Of a stretch of 64,000 bases of DNA, positions 10,514 to 49,080 are shown one piece after another; the stretch's first letter is position 1; the number at the start of each line of letters is the position of its first letter. Source of the stretch: an uncultured Pseudomonadota bacterium (GTDB lineage Bacteria; Oederibacteriota; Muellerivitia; Muellerivitales; Muellerivitaceae); assembly GCA_963843375.1 (NCBI GenBank), contig CAWJKT010000009.1:224001-288000 (forward strand). Reading direction: 5' to 3'. Under the pieces are notes generated by a model. It worked only from the letters and a program-made list of their open reading frames with translations, made no database searches and had not been told where the DNA came from. Position numbers and translations under genes: made by a program.

Positions 10514-11601
10514 AACCCACCATCACCGTGGATGCCCGGATGATCCAGTCGGCGGGGATCGGAACTTACCTGCAAAGCCTTCTCCCCCTGATCATTCGCC
10601 GCCGGCCGCAGTTTGGGTTTTGCCTTTTGGGAAAGGCTTCTGATCTTGAGGTTTTTACCTGGGCGAGACTGAAAAATACACGGATCATCCCCTGTGAATC
10701 GCCCATTTATGGGCTTCGGGAACAGGTCGAAATTCCGCGGAAGACGCCCCCTGAAACCGTCTTGTTCTGGTCGCCCCATTACAACATCCCGTTTGGCTGC
10801 TCCGCCAAACTCCTGGTAACGGTTCATGACGTGTTCCACTTGGCTATGCCTCAATTCACGGGGGGAATCCATAAGAGGATTTACGCCAGATATATGTTTT
10901 CATCCTTACGGAAAAAAGCGGCGGCCATACTGTCCGTTTCTCAATTCTCCAAAGATGAACTTTTAAAATACACCGGTCCGGCAGGGTGCCTGCCCCAAGT
11001 GGTTTATAACGGCGTAGACGAAAGCTGGATCCAGTTGAAAAAGAGAAAAAATCCTCATCCGGGTCCCTACATTTTGTTCGTCGGCAGTGTAAAACCGCAT
11101 AAAAACCTAATGAGGCTACTGGAAGCCTTTGAGAAGGTGAAGGACCAAATTCCTCAAGACCTGGTAATTGTGGGCAAAAAAGAAGGCTTTATCACGGGGG
11201 ATAGGAAGGTGATCCAAAGAGCTGAAAAACTGGGGAATCGGGTCTGCTTTACAGGGGACTTTCACTATGACGACCCTTTGTTCCGACAATATTACGCTTG
11301 GGCTGATTTTTTGGTTTTGCCTTCTTTATATGAGAGCTTCGGGCTTCCGGTCCTGGAGGCTATGGCCTGTGGCTGCCCGGCTTTGGTTTCTAACTTGGCG
11401 GCTTTCCCAGAAGTTTATGGGAATGCGGCGTTCTATTGCGATCCTTACAACGCGGAAGATATCTCGCTCAAACTCATGAAATTATCCAAGAATCGGAAGC
11501 TCCGCCAAGGGTTGATTCAAAGGGGTAGGGCGCGGGTAAAAAGATATAGTTGGGAAAAAAGCGCGGACAAAATCACGGGAATAATAGATGAGCTTCTTTA
11601 A
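10510..11601 (+). CDS. GT4 family glycosyltransferase
   Basis: VTVHD, KPHKN, PSLYESFGLPVLEAMACG. Confidence 0.9.
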   Translation: MKPTITVDARMIQSAGIGTYLQSLLPLIIRRRPQFGFCLLGKASDLEVFTWARLKNTRIIPCESPIYGLREQVEIPRKTPPETVLFWSPHYNIPFGCSAKLLVTVHDVFHLAMPQFTGGIHKRIYARYMFSSLRKKAAAILSVSQFSKDELLKYTGPAGCLPQVVYNGVDESWIQLKKRKNPHPGPYILFVGSVKPHKNLMRLLEAFEKVKDQIPQDLVIVGKKEGFITGDRKVIQRAEKLGNRVCFTGDFHYDDPLFRQYYAWADFLVLPSLYESFGLPVLEAMACGCPALVSNLAAFPEVYGNAAFYCDPYNAEDISLKLMKLSKNRKLRQGLIQRGRARVKRYSWEKSADKITGIIDELL

Positions 11602-11611
11602 AAAGGTGCGG

Positions 11612-12976
11612 TTAAGATCCCTGGTTTTGATTCCCCTCAGGTTCAACCGGTTTAAATACCAATAAGCTTATGGAAAAGAAAAACAACAGCCAGTAATCCA
11701 GGCGAGGGAAAGTCGCCGTCAGGTTCAAGTTGACAATGAAGTGGATGGCCCAGCCCAGCCCCATGAACACGATAGCCCCGCTTTCGGCAGGGTAGAGGAT
11801 CGAAAATCGAATAATGGCAAGCATGGCGAACAAAAAGGCCAACAAGCCCAACAACCCCGATTCCATTGCGATCTCAAGCCAAGTATTCATGACGTCTGTT
11901 GTCAACCCGCCGTAATCCTTGACGGGCCGATAGCCTCTTCCCAGCCAAAAGTTTTCCATCCATTGTTTTAGCCCGCGATTAAAGCTGTCCACCCGATCCC
12001 CTTCGCTGGTATGCGAGACCGCGACTCGGGTTGTGATTCCCTTCAAACCCATGGTTCCCGAAAGGCGGCTTAAATAGTTTTTCCCATCCGGGGAAAGAAA
12101 CAAAAGGCCGACGCCCACGGCCATGATGAGAAGGCTTTGGACCACGGCCTTTCGGATGTTTCCTAAATCCTTGAAGAAGGAAAGGGCTAAAAGGAAACCT
12201 AGTGTTATGCCGCAACCCAGGATGGCGGTGCGTGAAGTGGTTAGAAAGGAAGCGGCCACCACTAATCCGGGGATAATACCAGGGAAGCGCACCCGCCCTT
12301 TTTCCATGAAGAAGACCAGGGGAAGGGCGAAGATGAAAGCGGACCCGGCGTATCCGGGTTCGTAATAGAAGGCACACGGCCTATAAAGGAAGATTCCGTA
12401 AAAACTGTATCCCACCTGGGCGATCCCCAGGGGAATATGCAAACCGAAAAGGGGGAGAATCAGGAGGATTTTGTCTTGATAGGGCTCAACTTTCGCAATC
12501 TTGAAAAAGTAAAGACAGAAGACCTGAACAATGATGAAGGCGGCGAGGGCCAAGATGCCCCACCGGAAACCCCGTCGCAGGGAGGGCGCCCAACGGCTGT
12601 TTAAAAGGACTAAAGCGGCTCCGCCGATATTGAAAGCGGCCCAACCCAGTTTGATAAACCCCAATGCCGGAAAAGCGGATATGGAAACCGCCAGACCGTA
12701 AACCAAGGCAAAGGGTACCCAGGCCAAGGCCGAGGTTTTAACCCTGTTCCAATCCTCGGGGAAAGAATTTCGGTTTTTGAGAAGATCAAGGAGGGAATAG
12801 GATGCCATCCCCAAGAGCAAAAGTTGGCCCCAGCGGAAATTAAAACCATGGATTCTGAAGGCGAATACCAGGTCCGCGCTTCCCAGAAAAAAGAAACAGG
12901 CCCAGAATAAAGCTGGAAGCAAACCTTTCCCTTGGGGATTGCGGTTTAAAGGATCGATCGACGGATGTGTGGACAA
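11612..12976 (-). CDS. O-antigen ligase / Wzy polymerase-like membrane protein
   Basis: Polytopic membrane protein with TTSRTA, LGRG and NTWLEIAMESGLLG motifs inside a polysaccharide locus. Confidence 0.7.
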   Translation of the reverse strand: MSTHPSIDPLNRNPQGKGLLPALFWACFFFLGSADLVFAFRIHGFNFRWGQLLLLGMASYSLLDLLKNRNSFPEDWNRVKTSALAWVPFALVYGLAVSISAFPALGFIKLGWAAFNIGGAALVLLNSRWAPSLRRGFRWGILALAAFIIVQVFCLYFFKIAKVEPYQDKILLILPLFGLHIPLGIAQVGYSFYGIFLYRPCAFYYEPGYAGSAFIFALPLVFFMEKGRVRFPGIIPGLVVAASFLTTSRTAILGCGITLGFLLALSFFKDLGNIRKAVVQSLLIMAVGVGLLFLSPDGKNYLSRLSGTMGLKGITTRVAVSHTSEGDRVDSFNRGLKQWMENFWLGRGYRPVKDYGGLTTDVMNTWLEIAMESGLLGLLAFLFAMLAIIRFSILYPAESGAIVFMGLGWAIHFIVNLNLTATFPRLDYWLLFFFSISLLVFKPVEPEGNQNQGS

Positions 12977-18535: not shown

Positions 18536-18563
18536 AATCCAACAAGAGGACCCTTAGTGGACA
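18536..18563 (+). repeat. 28-bp site 1 (divergent left arm; left boundary)
   Basis: AATCCAACAAGAG-GA-CCCTTAGTGGACA. Confidence 0.65.
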
Positions 18564-19187: not shown

Positions 19188-19215
19188 TGTCCACGGCGGG
19201 GACCCAGCATGGACA
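19188..19215 (+). repeat. 28-bp site 2
   Basis: TGTCCACGGCGGG-GA-CCCAGCATGGACA. Confidence 0.9.
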
Positions 19216-20104: not shown

Positions 20105-20132
20105 TGTCCGCCACGGGGAGGTGTAATGGACA
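20105..20132 (+). repeat. 28-bp site 3
   Basis: TGTCCGCCACGGG-GA-GGTGTAATGGACA. Confidence 0.8.
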
Positions 20133-20800: not shown

Positions 20801-20828
20801 TGTCCACGGCGGGGACCCGGATTGGACG
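20801..20828 (+). repeat. 28-bp site 4
   Basis: TGTCCACGGCGGG-GA-CCCGGATTGGACG. Confidence 0.9.
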
Positions 20829-25526: not shown

Positions 25527-25554
25527 TGTCCACGGCGGGGAGGTATAGTAAACA
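25527..25554 (+). repeat. 28-bp site 5
   Basis: TGTCCACGGCGGG-GA-GGTATAGTAAACA. Confidence 0.8.
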
Positions 25555-25719
25555 ATAATTTTTTCAATACCTTGGCTGCTTCTTCATCCTCATCCTGAAC
25601 AAAAAGCGCTATTTATTATCAATTTTATTGTTGCCTCCCCTCCCCCCCACTACTAAACTTCCTCATGCTAAATTCTTTTCAACACCTTTAACCGCCCAAT
25701 TCGAGTCAAAGATATTTCA

Positions 25720-28485: not shown

Positions 28486-28513
28486 TGTTCCATACGGGGA
28501 CCCGGATTGGACA
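28486..28513 (+). repeat. 28-bp site 6 (carries the intron-binding site)
   Basis: TGTTCCATACGGG-GA-CCCGGATTGGACA. Confidence 0.85.
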
Positions 28514-29296
28514 GCGTGCCAGGATCAAGGATGCAGCAGCCAGCAGGTGCGGTTCGATATGAACCAAGTCCTGACGGGGTAACCGCCCGAGGGCCCCGAA
28601 GTCAACCTCCGTGGCAAAGTCGAGAGGCCTTGTCCGAAACGAGGTCATAAACCTTCGAAAGGAAGGGAACAATACTACAGTCCGTAACATGAAGTGAATC
28701 CTGCCGCGTCGTGACGAGTCCGCCGAAAGGCTATAGGGGAGGCCGAGCCGCGTGTCCAACGGCGAAGGCAACAATCTCATCCTGAAACGGGATTGGGTGG
28801 GGTAAATCCTCCGGCGTATTGGGAGCGGAATGTTGGAAAGGCTGGTGCATCAACCTGGGAGATCCTACCCGTTAAAAGAGCGGCTCCTATAAGGGCGACC
28901 GAAAGGGAGACGTGACGGGAGGAAGTCGGAGGGGGAAATAGTACCGCTTAGAGGGGGAGGACAACAAAACCTCACCTGAGGGAAGGTCCCCTGCTTCAAC
29001 CATGTGCCTTCAAGAAGGGTGGCGCTGGAGAATGCCGGAAACGGCTAATAACTCTGAAGGTCAAAAGCGCGTAATCTTCAACAAGCACTATGCCGAACGG
29101 CCAAGGGAAGTAGAACCTGTAAAGCCGTCGGAGAAAAGGTTGTCGGAAAGCCGTATGATCGAAAAGGTCACGTACGGTTTGATGAGGGGGCGTTGGAAAC
29201 GAAGTGATGAGGGAACCTAGTTGGGGCACGGAACCGGAAACGGGGAAACAGATCAAGGGGCCCTCTGCACACAACCGCGCCAGCGCTCTACTCTAC
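28514..29296 (+). mobile_element. ORF-less group II intron (IEP deleted)
   Basis: 5' GCGTG; EBS1 stem-loop GCCG-cgTGTCCAA-CGGC at 28747-28763; domain V AAAGCCGTATGATCGAAAAGGTCACGTACGGTTT at 29147-29180; domain VI ending CTCTACTCTAC; no RT ORF. Confidence 0.88.
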
Positions 29297-29415
29297 AACA
29301 AATAATGGGCCGAATCCTTTGGTGATCCTCATGGGCAATAGGGGGTTGATTCGATTACTCCCGCAGTTAAAAATAACCGCGAAAACGAAAACGTTTTTTT
29401 CCTAAGGAGAAAACC

Positions 29416-30232: not shown

Positions 30233-30260
30233 TGTCCACAATGGGGACCCGTCGTGGACA
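30233..30260 (+). repeat. 28-bp site 7
   Basis: TGTCCACAATGGG-GA-CCCGTCGTGGACA. Confidence 0.9.
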
Positions 30261-32444: not shown

Positions 32445-32563
32445 TGTCCACGACGGGGACCCCTAAACCCTGAGTGGTTCGAGGGCCTCACCATCCGCGC
32501 TCAAAGGGTCGATGAACTCAGGGCAAATTATAGGTCGTCCAATCTGGGAACCCGTCGTGGACA
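32445..32563 (+). repeat. Composite junction: half site + REP-like hairpin mini-module + 28-bp site 8 (32536-32563)
   Basis: TGTCCACGACGGGGACCC...CCCTGAGT...ACTCAGGGCAAATTATAGGT then CGTCCAATCTGGG-AA-CCCGTCGTGGACA. Confidence 0.8.
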
Positions 32564-33200: not shown

Positions 33201-33228
33201 TGTCCAACCTGGGGACCCGGATTGGACG
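33201..33228 (+). repeat. 28-bp site 9
   Basis: TGTCCAACCTGGG-GA-CCCGGATTGGACG. Confidence 0.88.
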
Positions 33229-33990: not shown

Positions 33991-34018
33991 TGTCCACGAC
34001 GGGGAGGTGTAGTGGACA
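33991..34018 (+). repeat. 28-bp site 10
   Basis: TGTCCACGACGGG-GA-GGTGTAGTGGACA. Confidence 0.88.
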
Positions 34019-34048
34019 AGGGGTTTCCCCGGCCGACAAGCCATTTAC

Positions 34049-34100
34049 TTGACGGTCCCTTTTCCAATGCATATAATTAATGCATATAGTTAATATGCAT
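34049..34100 (+). promoter_or_regulatory. Sigma70-type promoter with overlapping ATGCAT operator-like repeats for the VapBC module
   Basis: TTGACG-17 bp-TATAAT (34049-34077); three ATGCAT palindromes across the -10 and downstream. Confidence 0.7.
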
Positions 34101-34108
34101 CCCAGGAG

Positions 34109-34321
34109 ATGAAAATGCGGACCACCCTTGAACTTTCCAACCATTTGATCAAAGAACTCATGTCAGTGGAGAAATGGGCCTCCAAAACCCAGGCCATTGA
34201 GGCGGCCATCGACGATTTCGTCCGCCGGAAGAGACTGGATAAACTTATTTCCGCCAGGGGACGCTTGAAGGTGAAAGACGTTTCCTCCGAATTGCGGAAG
34301 ATGGAACTTCATGGCCGCTGA
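34109..34321 (+). CDS. VapB-family antitoxin
   Basis: MRTTL.L...L, SKT.AI..A...F.RR; overlaps PIN gene. Confidence 0.82.
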   Translation: MKMRTTLELSNHLIKELMSVEKWASKTQAIEAAIDDFVRRKRLDKLISARGRLKVKDVSSELRKMELHGR

Positions 34322-34700
34322 GATCCTGATTGACACATCGGTTTGGATCGACTATTTCCGCAAGCCGGACAGTGAAACCGGGGACAAGATCGTCAAACAT
34401 TTGAAACGCGGTTCCATATCTACTTGCGGAGTCGTCGTTTTTGAGGTCTTGCAGGGGGCGGCGGACCAAGAAGAGTTTTCTTTCCTGGAAGAGAACCTAA
34501 AAGGCCTGCATTTTCTCGAGGCAAACGCAGAGGCGTTTTTTGAGGCGGGGAAGGTTTCCTACGATTTGCGCAAGCATGGTATTACGCTCCCGTTAAGTGA
34601 CATTCTTATAGGCACTTTAGCCATGTCAAACCATCAAACGATTTGGACCAAGGACCAACATTTCAAAAAAATGAAAGGACTCCATCATCAGTTTTTTTAA
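34311..34700 (+). CDS. VapC PIN-domain toxin
   Basis: LIDTSVWIDYF, EVLQG, D.LI...A, T.D.HF. Confidence 0.9.
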   Translation: MAAEILIDTSVWIDYFRKPDSETGDKIVKHLKRGSISTCGVVVFEVLQGAADQEEFSFLEENLKGLHFLEANAEAFFEAGKVSYDLRKHGITLPLSDILIGTLAMSNHQTIWTKDQHFKKMKGLHHQFF

Positions 34701-34709
34701 TTAGGCCTT

Positions 34710-34737
34710 TGTCCACGGCGGGGACCCGTCGTGGACA
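34710..34737 (+). repeat. 28-bp site 11
   Basis: TGTCCACGGCGGG-GA-CCCGTCGTGGACA. Confidence 0.92.
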
Positions 34738-35370: not shown

Positions 35371-35398
35371 TGTCCACGACTGGGACCCGTCGTGGACA
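35371..35398 (+). repeat. 28-bp site 12
   Basis: TGTCCACGACTGG-GA-CCCGTCGTGGACA. Confidence 0.92.
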
Positions 35399-35995: not shown

Positions 35996-36023
35996 CGTCC
36001 ACGACGGAGACCCGTCGTGGACA
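35996..36023 (+). repeat. 28-bp site 13
   Basis: CGTCCACGACGGA-GA-CCCGTCGTGGACA. Confidence 0.9.
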
Positions 36024-37805: not shown

Positions 37806-37833
37806 TGTCCACGACGGGTCCCCGTCGTGGACA
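37806..37833 (-). repeat. 28-bp site 14, inverted orientation
   Basis: TGTCCACGACGGG-TC-CCCGTCGTGGACA, the exact reverse complement of the GA-core form. Confidence 0.9.
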
Positions 37834-38505: not shown

Positions 38506-38533
38506 TGTCCACGGCGGGGACCCGTCGTGGACA
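38506..38533 (+). repeat. 28-bp site 15
   Basis: TGTCCACGGCGGG-GA-CCCGTCGTGGACA. Confidence 0.92.
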
Positions 38534-38564
38534 ATGGAAACCTGGATTTGATTTCTATATCAAC

Positions 38565-38972
38565 TTACATCCAACCTGTCCGCCATTGTTGGCGCGATAG
38601 CCACACAAAGATCAGGATGATCAGCGGCGCCACCACATGCATTACGGGTTCGCCGCCGTGAAGAAGGTATGAAGCCGATGCGCCCAACAGGTCAAAGGTA
38701 AAACCCGCATAAGCCCATTCTTTGAGGGTGCGGAATTTTTTACTGCCGAAAAGAACCGCAATACAGCCGAGAATCTTGGCCACTCCCAAAATAGTACAAA
38801 GGTAAGCGGGGTAACCCAAGGCGGTAATCCCTTGAACATTCTCCGGTGCAGCCATCAGCATCATCACTCCACCCGATCCCATGGCTGAAACCACCAAGAG
38901 CGTCTCGATCCAATAGAATATCTTCGCCATCGTCATGTATTTCGCTTTCATTTCCGCTACGTTCTTCGCCAT
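38565..38972 (-). CDS. DoxX-like family membrane protein
   Basis: LGYPAY...ILGVAKILG, LKEWAYAGF.F.L.GA. Confidence 0.85.
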   Translation of the reverse strand: MAKNVAEMKAKYMTMAKIFYWIETLLVVSAMGSGGVMMLMAAPENVQGITALGYPAYLCTILGVAKILGCIAVLFGSKKFRTLKEWAYAGFTFDLLGASASYLLHGGEPVMHVVAPLIILIFVWLSRQQWRTGWM

Positions 38973-39000
38973 TTCACTTCTCCTTTGTTTTGATTCCTGC

Positions 39001-39474
39001 TTAAACTTTATTCACAAACGACTCGAACTTTTTAAGCTGATGATTCCAGGCCAGGTCCGAATCCAGCTGTTTGCGGAAGGTCTTGGCGTTCTCCCCAAAC
39101 TTTTCCAAATTCCGATGCTCCAGCTTGACCCAGGTTTTATCTTTCCCCTCGGATACAAAAGTGATTTCCACCTCGGTCGCGAAAGAAGGATCCAATTGAA
39201 AAGAGGCGGTGAGGTGCCACGCTAAAAGAATTCGATTCGGCTGCTCCCAGGCCAGCACCGTGGCCCAGTCACCCCGGGTGCCGTCTTCGGCTATTCCATA
39301 AAAACGGCCGTTCACCCTTGTCTCCAGAACCGCTTGTTTCAGTTGGGATTTGCCAACGCGGTATTCCCGGGGATACCAAGCGTCGATATTCTCCGTAAAG
39401 GCCGTGAAAGCCTCCAACAGGGGAATATTCACAAAAACCTGCTTCCGAATCGGTTCGATCATTGAGTCGGTCAT
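39001..39474 (-). CDS. SRPBCC/AHSA1 family protein
   Basis: AF.AFT..I..W, VLAWE.P.R..L.W, TEVEI.F, V.LEHR. Confidence 0.85.
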   Translation of the reverse strand: MTDSMIEPIRKQVFVNIPLLEAFTAFTENIDAWYPREYRVGKSQLKQAVLETRVNGRFYGIAEDGTRGDWATVLAWEQPNRILLAWHLTASFQLDPSFATEVEITFVSEGKDKTWVKLEHRNLEKFGENAKTFRKQLDSDLAWNHQLKKFESFVNKV

Positions 39475-39800
39475 GGTTTTTCTTTCATTTTTTTATTTTT
39501 CTCCACGTATTCCTTGAACGCTCCCAAAGACTTGTCCCAAAAACCGTCCAAATAGTCCCTCATGGTTTGAACTCCCTTGGGGTCCACCTGATACAGTCTT
39601 CGGGTGCCCCGCTGTTCTACCAACACCAACCCCGCTTCTTTCAACACCTTCAGATGTTGTGAAACCGCAGGTCTGGAAACATGCAAGCCTTCGCTTAGCT
39701 CCACCACGGCTAACGGACGCTTAGCTAGGCGCTCAAATAACTCTCGCCGGGTGGGATCACCTAAGGCCTGAAATGCTTTCGCTATAGTTGGGTTAGCCAT
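39471..39800 (-). CDS. ArsR/SmtB family regulator
   Basis: FQALGDPTRR, SRPAVSQHLKVLKEAGLV, GTRRLY. Confidence 0.9.
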   Translation of the reverse strand: MANPTIAKAFQALGDPTRRELFERLAKRPLAVVELSEGLHVSRPAVSQHLKVLKEAGLVLVEQRGTRRLYQVDPKGVQTMRDYLDGFWDKSLGAFKEYVEKNKKMKEKP

Positions 39801-39938
39801 ATCAACCGTAAGTATATACTTACCGATATGTCGATTGTCAAGATTCAATTATTGGAAGGGAAAGGTTGGAAATTAGACGGGAGTAAATAACATTTAAACG
39901 TGAGCTGGCCGTTACAATTGTAACGAAATGTAACTGGA

Positions 39939-39966
39939 TGTCCACGACGGGGACCCATCGTGGACA
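39939..39966 (+). repeat. 28-bp site 16
   Basis: TGTCCACGACGGG-GA-CCCATCGTGGACA. Confidence 0.92.
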
Positions 39967-42393: not shown

Positions 42394-42421
42394 TGTCCAC
42401 GGCGGGGAGCCTTCGTGGACA
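42394..42421 (+). repeat. 28-bp site 17
   Basis: TGTCCACGGCGGG-GA-GCCTTCGTGGACA. Confidence 0.9.
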
Positions 42422-43171: not shown

Positions 43172-43199
43172 TGTCCACGACGGGGACCCCAAAGGAACA
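43172..43199 (+). repeat. 28-bp site 18 (divergent right arm)
   Basis: TGTCCACGACGGG-GA-CCCCAAAGGAACA. Confidence 0.82.
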
Positions 43200-43986: not shown

Positions 43987-44014
43987 TGTCCACGACGGGG
44001 ACCCGGGGTGGACA
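43987..44014 (+). repeat. 28-bp site 19
   Basis: TGTCCACGACGGG-GA-CCCGGGGTGGACA. Confidence 0.9.
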
Positions 44015-44906: not shown

Positions 44907-44991
44907 TGTCCACGGCGGGGACCCCGTTCGGCTCCCTTTGGTCGCTCAGGGCAAATTATAAGTCGTCCAATCTGGGGACCCTGATTGGACA
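44907..44991 (+). repeat. Composite junction: half site + REP-like mini-module + 28-bp site 20 (44964-44991)
   Basis: TGTCCACGGCGGGGACCC-CGTTCGGCTCCCTTTGGTCGCTCAGGGCAAATTATAAGT-CGTCCAATCTGGG-GA-CCCTGATTGGACA. Confidence 0.85.
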
Positions 44992-45991: not shown

Positions 45992-46076
45992 TGTCCACGA
46001 CGGCGACCCCGTTCGACTCGCTAAGCTCGCTCAGGGCAAATGATAGGTCGTCCAATCTGGGGACCCGGAGTGGACA
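45992..46076 (+). repeat. Composite junction: half site + REP-like mini-module + 28-bp site 21 (46049-46076)
   Basis: TGTCCACGACGGCGACCC-CGTTCGACTCGCTAAGCTCGCTCAGGGCAAATGATAGGT-CGTCCAATCTGGG-GA-CCCGGAGTGGACA. Confidence 0.85.
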
Positions 46077-47059: not shown

Positions 47060-47087
47060 TGTCCACGGCGGGGACCTGTCGTGGACA
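47060..47087 (+). repeat. 28-bp site 22
   Basis: TGTCCACGGCGGG-GA-CCTGTCGTGGACA. Confidence 0.92.
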
Positions 47088-47817: not shown

Positions 47818-47845
47818 TGTCCATGGCGGGGAGGCGAAATGAAAC
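47818..47845 (+). repeat. 28-bp site 23 (divergent right arm; right boundary)
   Basis: TGTCCATGGCGGG-GA-GGCGAAATGAAAC, 3 bp after the VapC stop. Confidence 0.7.
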
Positions 47846-48163: not shown

Positions 48164-49080
48164 TGAATATCCTTGTAACGGGTGGGGCGGGATTTATAGG
48201 AAGCCACGTGGTGGATGCTTATATTGAGGCGGGACAACGGGTAGTGGTGGTCGATGATCTGTCTACGGGAAAAAAAGAAAATCTAAACCCCAAGGCAAAA
48301 TTCTACCAAATGGACATCTTGGACGACAAACTCCAACATTTGATGCAGGATGAAGGTATAGAACTGGTCAACCATCACGCGGCCCAGATCAAGGTGAAAG
48401 CTTCTTTGGAAGATCCCTATTTCGACGTTAAGGTGAATGTCCTGGGTTCGGTACTGCTTTTGGACCTTTGCAGGCGTGCGGGAGTGAAAAAGTTTATCTA
48501 TGCCTCCTCGGGCGGTGCCCAATACGGTGAAATGGACAAGGTTCCATTTCCGGAAACGCACCTATCACGGCCTTTTTCGGTTTATGGTGCCAGTAAGTAT
48601 TCGGTGGAAATCTACGCAGATGTCTTCGCCCAGAATTTTGGTCTGGAATATGTCATCTTGCGCTATGCCAACGTCTACGGCCCCCGCCAGGATGCTTTGG
48701 GGGAAGGTGGCGTAGTAGCCATTTTTACCCACAGCATGCTCCATGGCGGGGAATTCGTGATCTTTGGCGACGGTTATAATGTGAGGGATTATGTGTATGT
48801 GGGGGATTTGGCTAGGGCCAACCTAATGGCCATCGACTATCCACACAATGATGTTTTTAATATTGGAACGGGTGTTGGAACCACAACGAACGAGTTATTT
48901 AAATTCTTAGCCAAGGCGACGGGCCATAAGCCGCCACCCAAAAGAACAGTGGCTAGGCTGGGTGATTTGAAAAAGAGTGTTTTAGATGTGTCTAAAGCCA
49001 AGAAGCTTTTAAAATGGGAACCCAGATTTGATCTTGCAGCTGGGTTAAAAGAAACGGTTGAATACTTCGAGAAGTTTTGA
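48163..49080 (+). CDS. NAD-dependent epimerase/dehydratase (GalE-like)
   Basis: VTGGAGFIGSH, ASSGG..YG, YGASK, RYANVYGPRQ, RDYVYV.D. Confidence 0.92.
   Translation: MNILVTGGAGFIGSHVVDAYIEAGQRVVVVDDLSTGKKENLNPKAKFYQMDILDDKLQHLMQDEGIELVNHHAAQIKVKASLEDPYFDVKVNVLGSVLLLDLCRRAGVKKFIYASSGGAQYGEMDKVPFPETHLSRPFSVYGASKYSVEIYADVFAQNFGLEYVILRYANVYGPRQDALGEGGVVAIFTHSMLHGGEFVIFGDGYNVRDYVYVGDLARANLMAIDYPHNDVFNIGTGVGTTTNELFKFLAKATGHKPPPKRTVARLGDLKKSVLDVSKAKKLLKWEPRFDLAAGLKETVEYFEKF

Follow-up and report, generated by a model that had tools for sequence, protein, structure and literature searches.

The capture of gene cassettes has until now been associated with integrons, in which a tyrosine integrase acts on folded single-stranded attC sites. 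The window analysed here, a stretch of 64,000 nucleotides from an uncultured bacterium (GenBank assembly GCA_963843375.1, contig CAWJKT010000009.1, forward-strand positions 224,001 to 288,000), carries on its plus strand an array of about 25 small gene cassettes (18536–47845), delimited by 26 sites of the form 13 + GA + 13 of which 25 share one orientation. We consider this to be, with good probability, an integron-like cassette array that uses 28 bp duplex sites, a short serine recombinase being the likeliest enzyme. Like integrons, sedentary chromosomal integrons and clusters of attC sites lacking integron integrases (CALINs), it is a long one-way array of small cassettes rich in toxin–antitoxin pairs, and as in integrons and CALINs a recombinase gene stands at one end of some arrays and is lacking at others; group II introns home beside the sites in both cases. 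The differences from integrons are equally marked. No IntI was found in a search of the source genome or among 135 open reading frames (ORFs) at array ends, none of which belongs to the Phage_integrase family. An attC site measures 55–140 bp, contains R''/L''–L'/R' boxes with a GTTRRRY core and is used as a folded strand, whereas the present sites are 28 bp long and lack GTTRRRY. Integron crossover takes place at the 3' edge of attC, so that almost all of the site stays with the upstream gene, whereas here the site is split mid-way and each cassette carries half a site at either end. The associated recombinase is of the serine class, and its gene, placed at the array's downstream end, points back towards the cassettes, again unlike the arrangement in integrons.

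Among serine recombinases, site I of res (Tn3 and gamma-delta) and the hix and gix sites of Hin and Gin are dyads of 26–28 bp in which a 2 bp central overlap sets the polarity, and the outer TGTC of the arms described here recalls the resolvase half-site. The enzyme considered here, however, is not a resolvase or invertase of 180–200 residues with a small helix–turn–helix domain; no accessory sites or enhancer are seen, and the outcome is the insertion and excision of cassettes rather than resolution or inversion. With the large serine recombinases (the A118/LI, Bxb1, phiC31 and SPbeta integrases; PDB codes 4KIS, 9IU2, 4BQQ and 9DXD) it shares a catalytic domain and a recombinase domain, and the sites of both are symmetric about a non-palindromic central dinucleotide. 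It differs from them in being a short protein devoid of zinc ribbon and coiled coil, in the size of its sites (28 bp compared with 40–50 bp) and in that all sites are alike; as attP is not distinguished from attB, control of direction by a coiled coil should be absent.

Two further systems invite comparison. The plasmid dif modules of Acinetobacter (pdif, recombined by XerC/XerD) likewise have 28 bp sites around small modules, toxin–antitoxin pairs among them, that recur in many contexts. The sites that flank dif modules alternate in orientation; those described here are chromosomal, run one way in 271 of 273 neighbouring pairs (both exceptions involve window site 37806), are symmetric as 13 + 2 + 13 and are associated with a serine recombinase gene instead of Xer. 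Staphylococcal cassette chromosome (SCC) elements are stacked in tandem at a single chromosomal site by the serine recombinases CcrAB or CcrC, with repeated att sites between them, and are tens of kilobases in size with ccr genes of their own that encode full-length enzymes. In contrast, the cassettes here span 0.4–4 kb, have no recombinase inside and number dozens per array.

The initial annotation of the window, made from its letters alone, had proposed inverted-repeat sites around a central GA, and these prove to be real: the 15-mer formed by the left arm and GA has 50 matches in the window with up to three mismatches, whereas shuffled sequence gives 6.9 on average and 14 at most, and none of 100 shuffles reached 50. 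Its description of the alignment also stands, in that the centre is GA throughout the window sites save for an AA at 32536 and an inverted TC at 37806, three types of left arm and three of right arm occur in mixed combinations, and right arms of the GGTRTA type begin at the first base after GA in sites 20105, 25527 and 33991. When the search for sites relied on the arms and imposed nothing on the centre (in the source genome, its relatives and public contigs), GA or TC occupied the centre in 231 of 238 unique sites and the spacer measured 2 bp in 279 of 284 arm pairs. The arms of many sites are perfectly symmetric, which leaves the centre as the only possible carrier of array polarity. The source genome (G000; in what follows G001 denotes a genome of the same genus, other G numbers genomes of the family or phylum, and L numbers other loci) holds about 85 sites in at least six arrays, and the median spacing over 277 cassettes from all loci collected is 837 bp.

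A representative unit is the VapB/VapC(PIN) cassette, which together with both of its flanking 28 bp sites occupies 33991–34737. It is opened by site 33991–34018 (TGTCCACGACGGG GA GGTGTAGTGGACA), whose right arm GGTGTAGTGGACA forms its start, and closed by the near-perfect site 34710–34737 (TGTCCACGGCGGG GA CCCGTCGTGGACA). Between these lie genes for a VapB-type antitoxin (34109–34321; PF09957, E = 6.1e-6) and a PIN-domain, VapC-type toxin (34311–34700; PF01850, E = 3.1e-12), all on the plus strand. Many of the window cassettes are toxin–antitoxin pairs, of the MazF, VapBC, BrnTA and PIN_3/HicB kinds; others encode a GNAT acetyltransferase, short-chain dehydrogenases, a penicillin amidase, regulators and products without a family.

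The array is an insertion, and its cassettes move singly. It is flanked on both sides by polysaccharide-synthesis genes and is absent from the same locus of G001, where about 0.7 kb, in place of 29.6 kb, separates flanks 83% and 78–82% identical to those of the window. The gap in G001 contains a half site resembling a left arm, together with GA, and a single unrelated ORF, and homology to the G001 flank fades within the left arm of the first site, 18536; reconstruction of an empty target site from this locus was rejected, the half site and the unrelated ORF showing that it is not clean. Window cassettes recur one by one across many genera of the family at 76–93% identity, in other contexts and orders. 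The VapBC cassette is found at eight other loci (79–85% identity), and in L044 it is preceded by a BrnT-type cassette, the reverse of the order in the window. Homology between cassette copies begins and ends inside the 28 bp site. Contigs of four public runs tell the same story in part: 12 of 24 listed loose ends leave the window at site edges, the remainder being adapter sequence (four), an intron end (one) or elsewhere (seven); parts of the window that these contigs do not cover carry no information. One contig of run X1 diverges directly after site 44964–44991. A joint from 38532 to 39942, also in run X1, was left unused as evidence of excision, with a short side of 26 letters and repeated site sequence.

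These observations bear on the suggestion that the palindromes are gene-end markers, similar to repetitive extragenic palindromic (REP) elements or terminators, in islands assembled by other means. Such markers would stand behind genes and be capable of forming hairpins, as the sites do. The sites, however, are clustered in arrays and not spread over intergenic DNA, cassette homology starts and stops within 28 bp, the array comes or goes as one block within conserved flanks and no T run follows the hairpin. REP elements mobilized by REP-associated tyrosine transposases (RAYTs) are further set apart by the lack of a match to PF01797 in the source genome. Of the explanations weighed here this one appears to be the least probable.

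The exact 15-mer is present in 20 of 24 genomes sampled from the family and in none of 12 from families f4–f10 of the same phylum; outside the family, the phylum has it seldom or not at all. Multi-site loci in public data are annotated as candidate division FCPU426 or simply as 'uncultured' bacteria, and single site matches in Actinomycetota and other taxa look like chance.

The point of exchange was mapped on 693 unique junctions (from the source genome, relatives, genome contigs and metagenome contigs), grouped by 250 bp of upstream or downstream homology; relatives were used because paralogous cassettes within the source genome were too few and too diverged. Right arms prove to be linked to the cassette that follows them. 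Where junctions share the downstream cassette and differ in their upstream DNA, right-arm identity is 0.796 compared with 0.725 after shuffling (47 families), a value that none of 3000 shuffles matched; where they share the upstream cassette and differ downstream it is 0.655 compared with 0.678, which amounts to no linkage (57 families). Identity at the outer positions of the left arm is slightly raised within downstream families (p = 0.025 in the enlarged set), and this is probably a by-product of the detection rule, under which poor right arms demanded good left arms.

Recent events were followed in independent junction pairs with flanks at least 95% identical, counting the differences per pair. 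Eighteen pairs with the same upstream cassette and different downstream DNA show 0.28 differences in the left arm and 2.39 in the right, nine pairs with the same downstream cassette (intron junctions removed) show 0.78 and 0.56, and random junction pairs show 1.33 and 3.64, respectively. The 18 upstream pairs have no differences at positions 1–8 and 11–17, and 11, 10, 7 and 5 differences at positions 19, 20, 21 and 22. A contig of run X1 matches the window from 35384 onwards (the G of GA in site 35371), has other DNA before this point and carries a different left arm at the site, differing at positions 11–12. The exchange point is within positions 11–18, and perhaps within 13–18 on the strength of this one contig variant; the invariant GGG-GA-CCC centre allows no finer mapping. 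The initial annotation had held that arms were reassorted by exchange at GA and that linkage between left and right arms would break at positions 14–15. Arm linkage places the exchange at or beside GA and does break centrally, at a resolution of about 6–8 bp that spans positions 11–18 and not 14–15 alone. Each of two cassettes of L050 (1167–1819 and 13133–13820) is flanked upstream and downstream by sites with one and the same unusual right arm (CCCACCGT... and GGCGTCGT..., respectively), which simple central exchange does not predict.

A mini-cassette of 57–91 bp without an ORF serves as a natural marker of this process. Eight unique copies occur over all loci, three of them in the window (32473–32535, 44935–44963 and 46020–46048) with the conserved core CTCAGGGCAAATTATAGGT. 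All eight end in an odd left arm of the form xGTCxAATCxGGG (CGTCCAATCTGGG), and the right arms and DNA downstream of them are varied and unrelated. The AATC variant of the left arm is present at all five detected junctions behind the mini-cassette and at one of the 688 others. The first window copy begins with the right arm (CCCCTAAACCCTG) of site 32445–32472 and ends with the left arm CGTCCAATCTGGG of site 32536–32563, the site with the AA centre. The second is opened by site 44907–44934 and closed by site 44964–44991, again with left arm CGTCCAATCTGGG, and the third is bounded by sites 45992–46019 and 46049–46076; all of these sites are on the plus strand. Site 44964 was added to the site list in the present work and is apparently absent from that of the initial annotation. 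The mini-cassette itself may encode a small RNA or serve as a promoter or binding site.

Symmetric sites of this kind might instead work as single-stranded hairpins, recognized by an enzyme resembling the integron integrases, by an IS200/IS605-type (HUH) transposase or by an IS110/IS1111-type enzyme. Perfect copies do fold well as single strands (−12.7 kcal/mol, z = −4.1), and introns lying 2 nt behind the site at 12 junctions recall the homing of group IIC introns into attC discussed below. Variant sites, on the other hand, fold no better than shuffled sequence (z = −0.04 and +0.56), complementarity of mirrored positions within sites is 0.817 compared with 0.816 in shuffles (p = 0.28) and that between the two ends of the same cassette is 0.821 compared with 0.819. 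There is no sign of selection for folding of the sites; compensatory co-variation of the arms as intact hairpins, which had been named beforehand as the outcome opposed to exchange at GA, was looked for and not seen. In the source genome, which is 80% complete, no integron integrase was found (best TIGR02249 score 47.5 bits against a cut-off of 265), nor any Y1 transposase (PF01797). Integron integrases cut at the base of the hairpin stem, whereas the exchange point mapped here would fall at the hairpin tip. We regard a hairpin mechanism as highly improbable.

The best candidate for the enzyme comes from another array of the source genome, where 40 bp separate the right arm of the last site from the gene for a serine recombinase of 281 residues that follows it (contig C9, 137163–138005). 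Homologues that are 52–78% identical, intact or as remnants, lie 18–47 bp from the right arm of the terminal site and are convergent with the cassettes. The gene or its remnant abuts the terminal site at all 11 evaluable places (G000 C9, L226, L227, L228, L047, L104, L118, L203, L381, L382 and L383), a count that leaves aside three more partial copies at contig ends. On the far side of the gene no site was found in the five distinct loci for which at least 4 kb is available on that side (L226, L227, L381, L382 and L383), indicating that the gene stands at the limit of the array and does not form a cassette of its own. In G042 an intact copy is accompanied by three that lack the N-terminal part, each at an array end. 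The 135 ORFs mentioned above, all of at least 170 residues and within 3 kb of array ends, include three short serine recombinases and one other resolvase.

The short recombinase matches Resolvase (PF00239, E = 4.1e-21) and Recombinase (PF07508, E = 2.5e-15) in a Pfam search, which detected no other domain in it and no zinc ribbon (PF13408). It ends exactly where relatives of 510–515 residues begin their Cys-rich zinc ribbon; no sites lie near two of these long relatives. The short protein is 49–57% identical to full-length members of 510–530 residues, and Arg18 (R18), Ser20 (S20), Asp89 (D89), Arg90 (R90) and Arg93 (R93) are invariant in 52 sequences. A protein search returned a clade of 19 clusters at 69–98% identity, all of 275–283 residues, and below 61% identity the lengths scatter and zinc ribbons appear. 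A structure model (pLDDT of 81) matches serine integrase–DNA complexes, with 131 columns aligned to 4kis_C at 2.6 Å; a first model based on seven sequences (pLDDT of 54.8) was not used. The recombinase-domain binding region is placed at half-site positions 1–12 and the zinc-ribbon motif at 16–24 in the account of PMC3783163, and on that footprint the catalytic and recombinase domains alone would need about 2 × 12–14 bp, as is seen here. A serine-type enzyme had already been favoured in the initial annotation on the geometry of the sites, which by itself cannot settle the matter; support for it comes from the serine recombinase gene at array ends.

Several other recombinase genes were considered and set aside. 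Paralogous tyrosine recombinases of about 370 residues, a trio on contig C8 and an Xer-like gene are not near arrays in the source genome or the loci fetched, and a 127-residue serine recombinase fragment at the end of contig C9 shows no link to the sites. In the metagenome contig L232 a resolvase-type serine recombinase of 229 residues (11026–11712) lies 61 bp behind the last site and converges on the array; it was not counted as the associated enzyme because two 79% identical relatives in G018 have no sites in the stretches fetched.

The main rival holds that a tyrosine recombinase, either the Xer-like enzyme of the host or one of the paralogous integrases of about 370 residues, acts in trans on the sites, which would be dif-like (11 + 6 + 11) with an overlap of 6–8 bp (GGGACC or GGGGACCC) as in the plasmid dif modules of Acinetobacter. 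The site length of 28 bp suits this proposal, an exchange point within positions 11–18 would also fit a 6–8 bp overlap, and the source genome has 14 tyrosine-recombinase family matches, including the Xer-like protein and at least eight others. None of these 14 is near an array, however; tyrosine recombinases are missing from the 135 ORFs beside array ends and from the window. In the junction set positions 12–15 are invariant and position 16 varies, agreeing in only about 0.69–0.83 of random pairs, which would be heterology within the presumed overlap. The common orientation of the sites is unlike the alternation seen in dif modules, and the 15-mer is missing from all 12 genomes sampled in families f4–f10, unlike what would be expected of a conserved host dif, though dif could have diverged. 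The proposal also leaves the serine recombinase at array ends unexplained. An earlier argument against Xer, that GGGACC and GGGAGG would break the identity required across its core, is reasonable and yet not decisive, because sites with variant centres could be inactive. Taken together, we consider a tyrosine recombinase acting in trans to be unlikely.

The mechanism that we prefer, cassette exchange by the short serine recombinase on duplex sites, would run as follows. Each cassette owns a right arm, with which it begins (5'), and a left arm, with which it ends (3'); brought together in a free circle, the pair would make up a complete site. On insertion into the array or excision from it, DNA would be exchanged within the invariant centre. 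The most likely enzyme is the serine recombinase of 275–283 residues encoded at the downstream end of some arrays, which has the catalytic domain, long helix and 'recombinase domain' of large serine recombinases and stops just before their zinc-ribbon/coiled-coil part. It would cover about 12–13 bp of each half-site and cut with a 2 bp stagger at GA, the asymmetry of which would set the strict polarity, and one intact copy probably serves several arrays in trans. From the gene's position and the make-up of the sites, we infer that the short recombinase acts on these sites and that the cut spans 2 bp at GA. A more ambitious proposal, to which we give an even chance, is that of a convergent 'serine integron'. 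Its enzyme would derive from a large serine recombinase in which the distinction between attP and attB and the control of direction disappeared together with the zinc ribbon and the coiled coil. Domesticated as a direction-neutral enzyme, it would insert and excise circles of single genes at uniform double-stranded sites of 28 bp through 2 bp exchange at GA, with one intact copy serving many arrays per genome; the system would have spread through a family of the uncultured phylum FCPU426 and would have acquired site-homing group II introns of its own, as the attC sites of integrons have.

A number of observations weigh against this mechanism or against parts of it. The link between enzyme and sites rests on adjacency; gene annotation of the window found no recombinase gene in it, tyrosine recombinases included, and at the contig C9 locus a group II intron interrupts the site adjoining the gene, between site positions 11 and 12. 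Intact short-form genes are present in five of 31 family genomes (G000, G001, G022, G042 and G045), so that most array-bearing genomes lack one, a point that counts in favour of a tyrosine recombinase; no intact short form was found with the query in G005, G010, G021 and G023, which have 19–33 exact sites each, and G018 has 69 sites and a recombinase fragment only. Genomes without an intact copy could hold integrase-less arrays as in integrons, be incompletely assembled or employ another enzyme. As to the point of exchange, left arms are barely more alike among junctions with the same upstream cassette than in shuffles (0.907 compared with 0.903, p = 0.25, 57 families), and the same family test gave p = 0.045 in a smaller first set; the test is weak because the left arm varies too little. 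Five of the 18 upstream pairs first differ at position 9 or 10, within the left arm, a result that needs mutation or some conversion process to account for it. A rare G at positions 16–17 is common to sites that follow homologous cassettes and precede different ones (window site 33991 with L058, and L039 with L042), which a strict crossover at GA does not predict. Finally, a 2 bp overlap is inseparable by linkage from one of 6–8 bp, because positions 11–18 barely vary.

We found no published description of these sites or of cassette arrays run by a serine recombinase, in a search that subscription journals mostly lay outside. If the preferred mechanism is true, it would represent a second and unrelated solution to cassette capture, so that cassette platforms would have evolved more than once, and a natural serine integrase core that works without the domains that impose direction. 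It would also have a bearing on the engineering of small, reversible, site-specific integration tools and would explain the dozens of toxin–antitoxin and accessory genes per genome in an uncultured soil phylum.

Group II introns accompany the arrays. An ORF-less intron in the window (28516–29300, plus strand; Rfam RF02003 at 28556–28692, 61.6 bits, and RF00029 at 29146–29296, 45.1 bits) begins 2 nt after site 28486–28513; it homed beside the site and is a passenger, not part of the recombination system. The same 2 nt offset is found at 12 junctions, comprising site 28486 and 11 elsewhere, and relatives hold up to about seven intron copies. In a contig of run X3 the same intron follows directly after site 34710–34737, showing that the insertion varies within the population. 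Group IIC introns home into integron attC sites in a hairpin-guided manner, as set out in the account of PMC3001079. The intron that splits the site on contig C9 (135155–137123) bears a reverse transcriptase, and its insertion point differs from that of the ORF-less intron.

The remaining sites of the window array are listed here from the site alignment. At the upstream boundary, site 18536–18563 has a degenerate left arm (AATCCAACAAGAG), GA and a good right arm; at the downstream boundary, site 47818–47845 has a good left arm, GA and a degenerate right arm (GGCGAAATGAAAC). Between them lie site 19188–19215 (found also by the 15-mer search), site 20105–20132 with right arm GGTGTAATGGACA, site 20801–20828 with right arm CCCGGATTGGACG, which as a single strand folds no better than shuffles, and site 25527–25554 with right arm GGTATAGTAAACA. 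These are followed by sites 30233–30260, 33201–33228, 35371–35398 (left arm TGTCCACGACTGG), 35996–36023, 38506–38533, 39939–39966, 42394–42421, 43172–43199 (right arm CCCCAAAGGAACA), 43987–44014 and 47060–47087, all of them on the plus strand. The right arm CCCCAAAGGAACA of site 43172 also occurs at a homologous cassette in L077 and resembles the arm that adjoins the recombinase gene elsewhere. The sole inverted site of the entire data set, 37806–37833 on the minus strand, has perfectly symmetric arms and reads TC at its centre on the plus strand; to its left and to its right, contigs of runs X1 and X2 depart from the window, and the genes beyond 38534 are on the minus strand. A match at 48738 was dropped from the site list as a chance match within an epimerase gene.

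A few further observations concern single places. At site 25527 a run of about 20 bases (25544–25565, the end of the right arm and the bases that follow) matches site C9:134162, where the DNA continues as a 14-residue remnant of the recombinase C-terminus; the window array may have arisen by fusion of arrays whose former ends lay near 25544–25565. Elsewhere on the source genome (C11:420744–422000) eight left-arm half-site matches are spaced at multiples of 66 bp in what looks like a tandem repeat, probably coding, that is unrelated to the arrays. In the VapBC cassette, the stretch 5' of the VapB gene (34060–34105) contains a TTGACG...TATAAT-like promoter overlapping a palindrome (ATGCATATAATTAATGCATAT) that is probably an autoregulation operator, so that this cassette would carry its own promoter.

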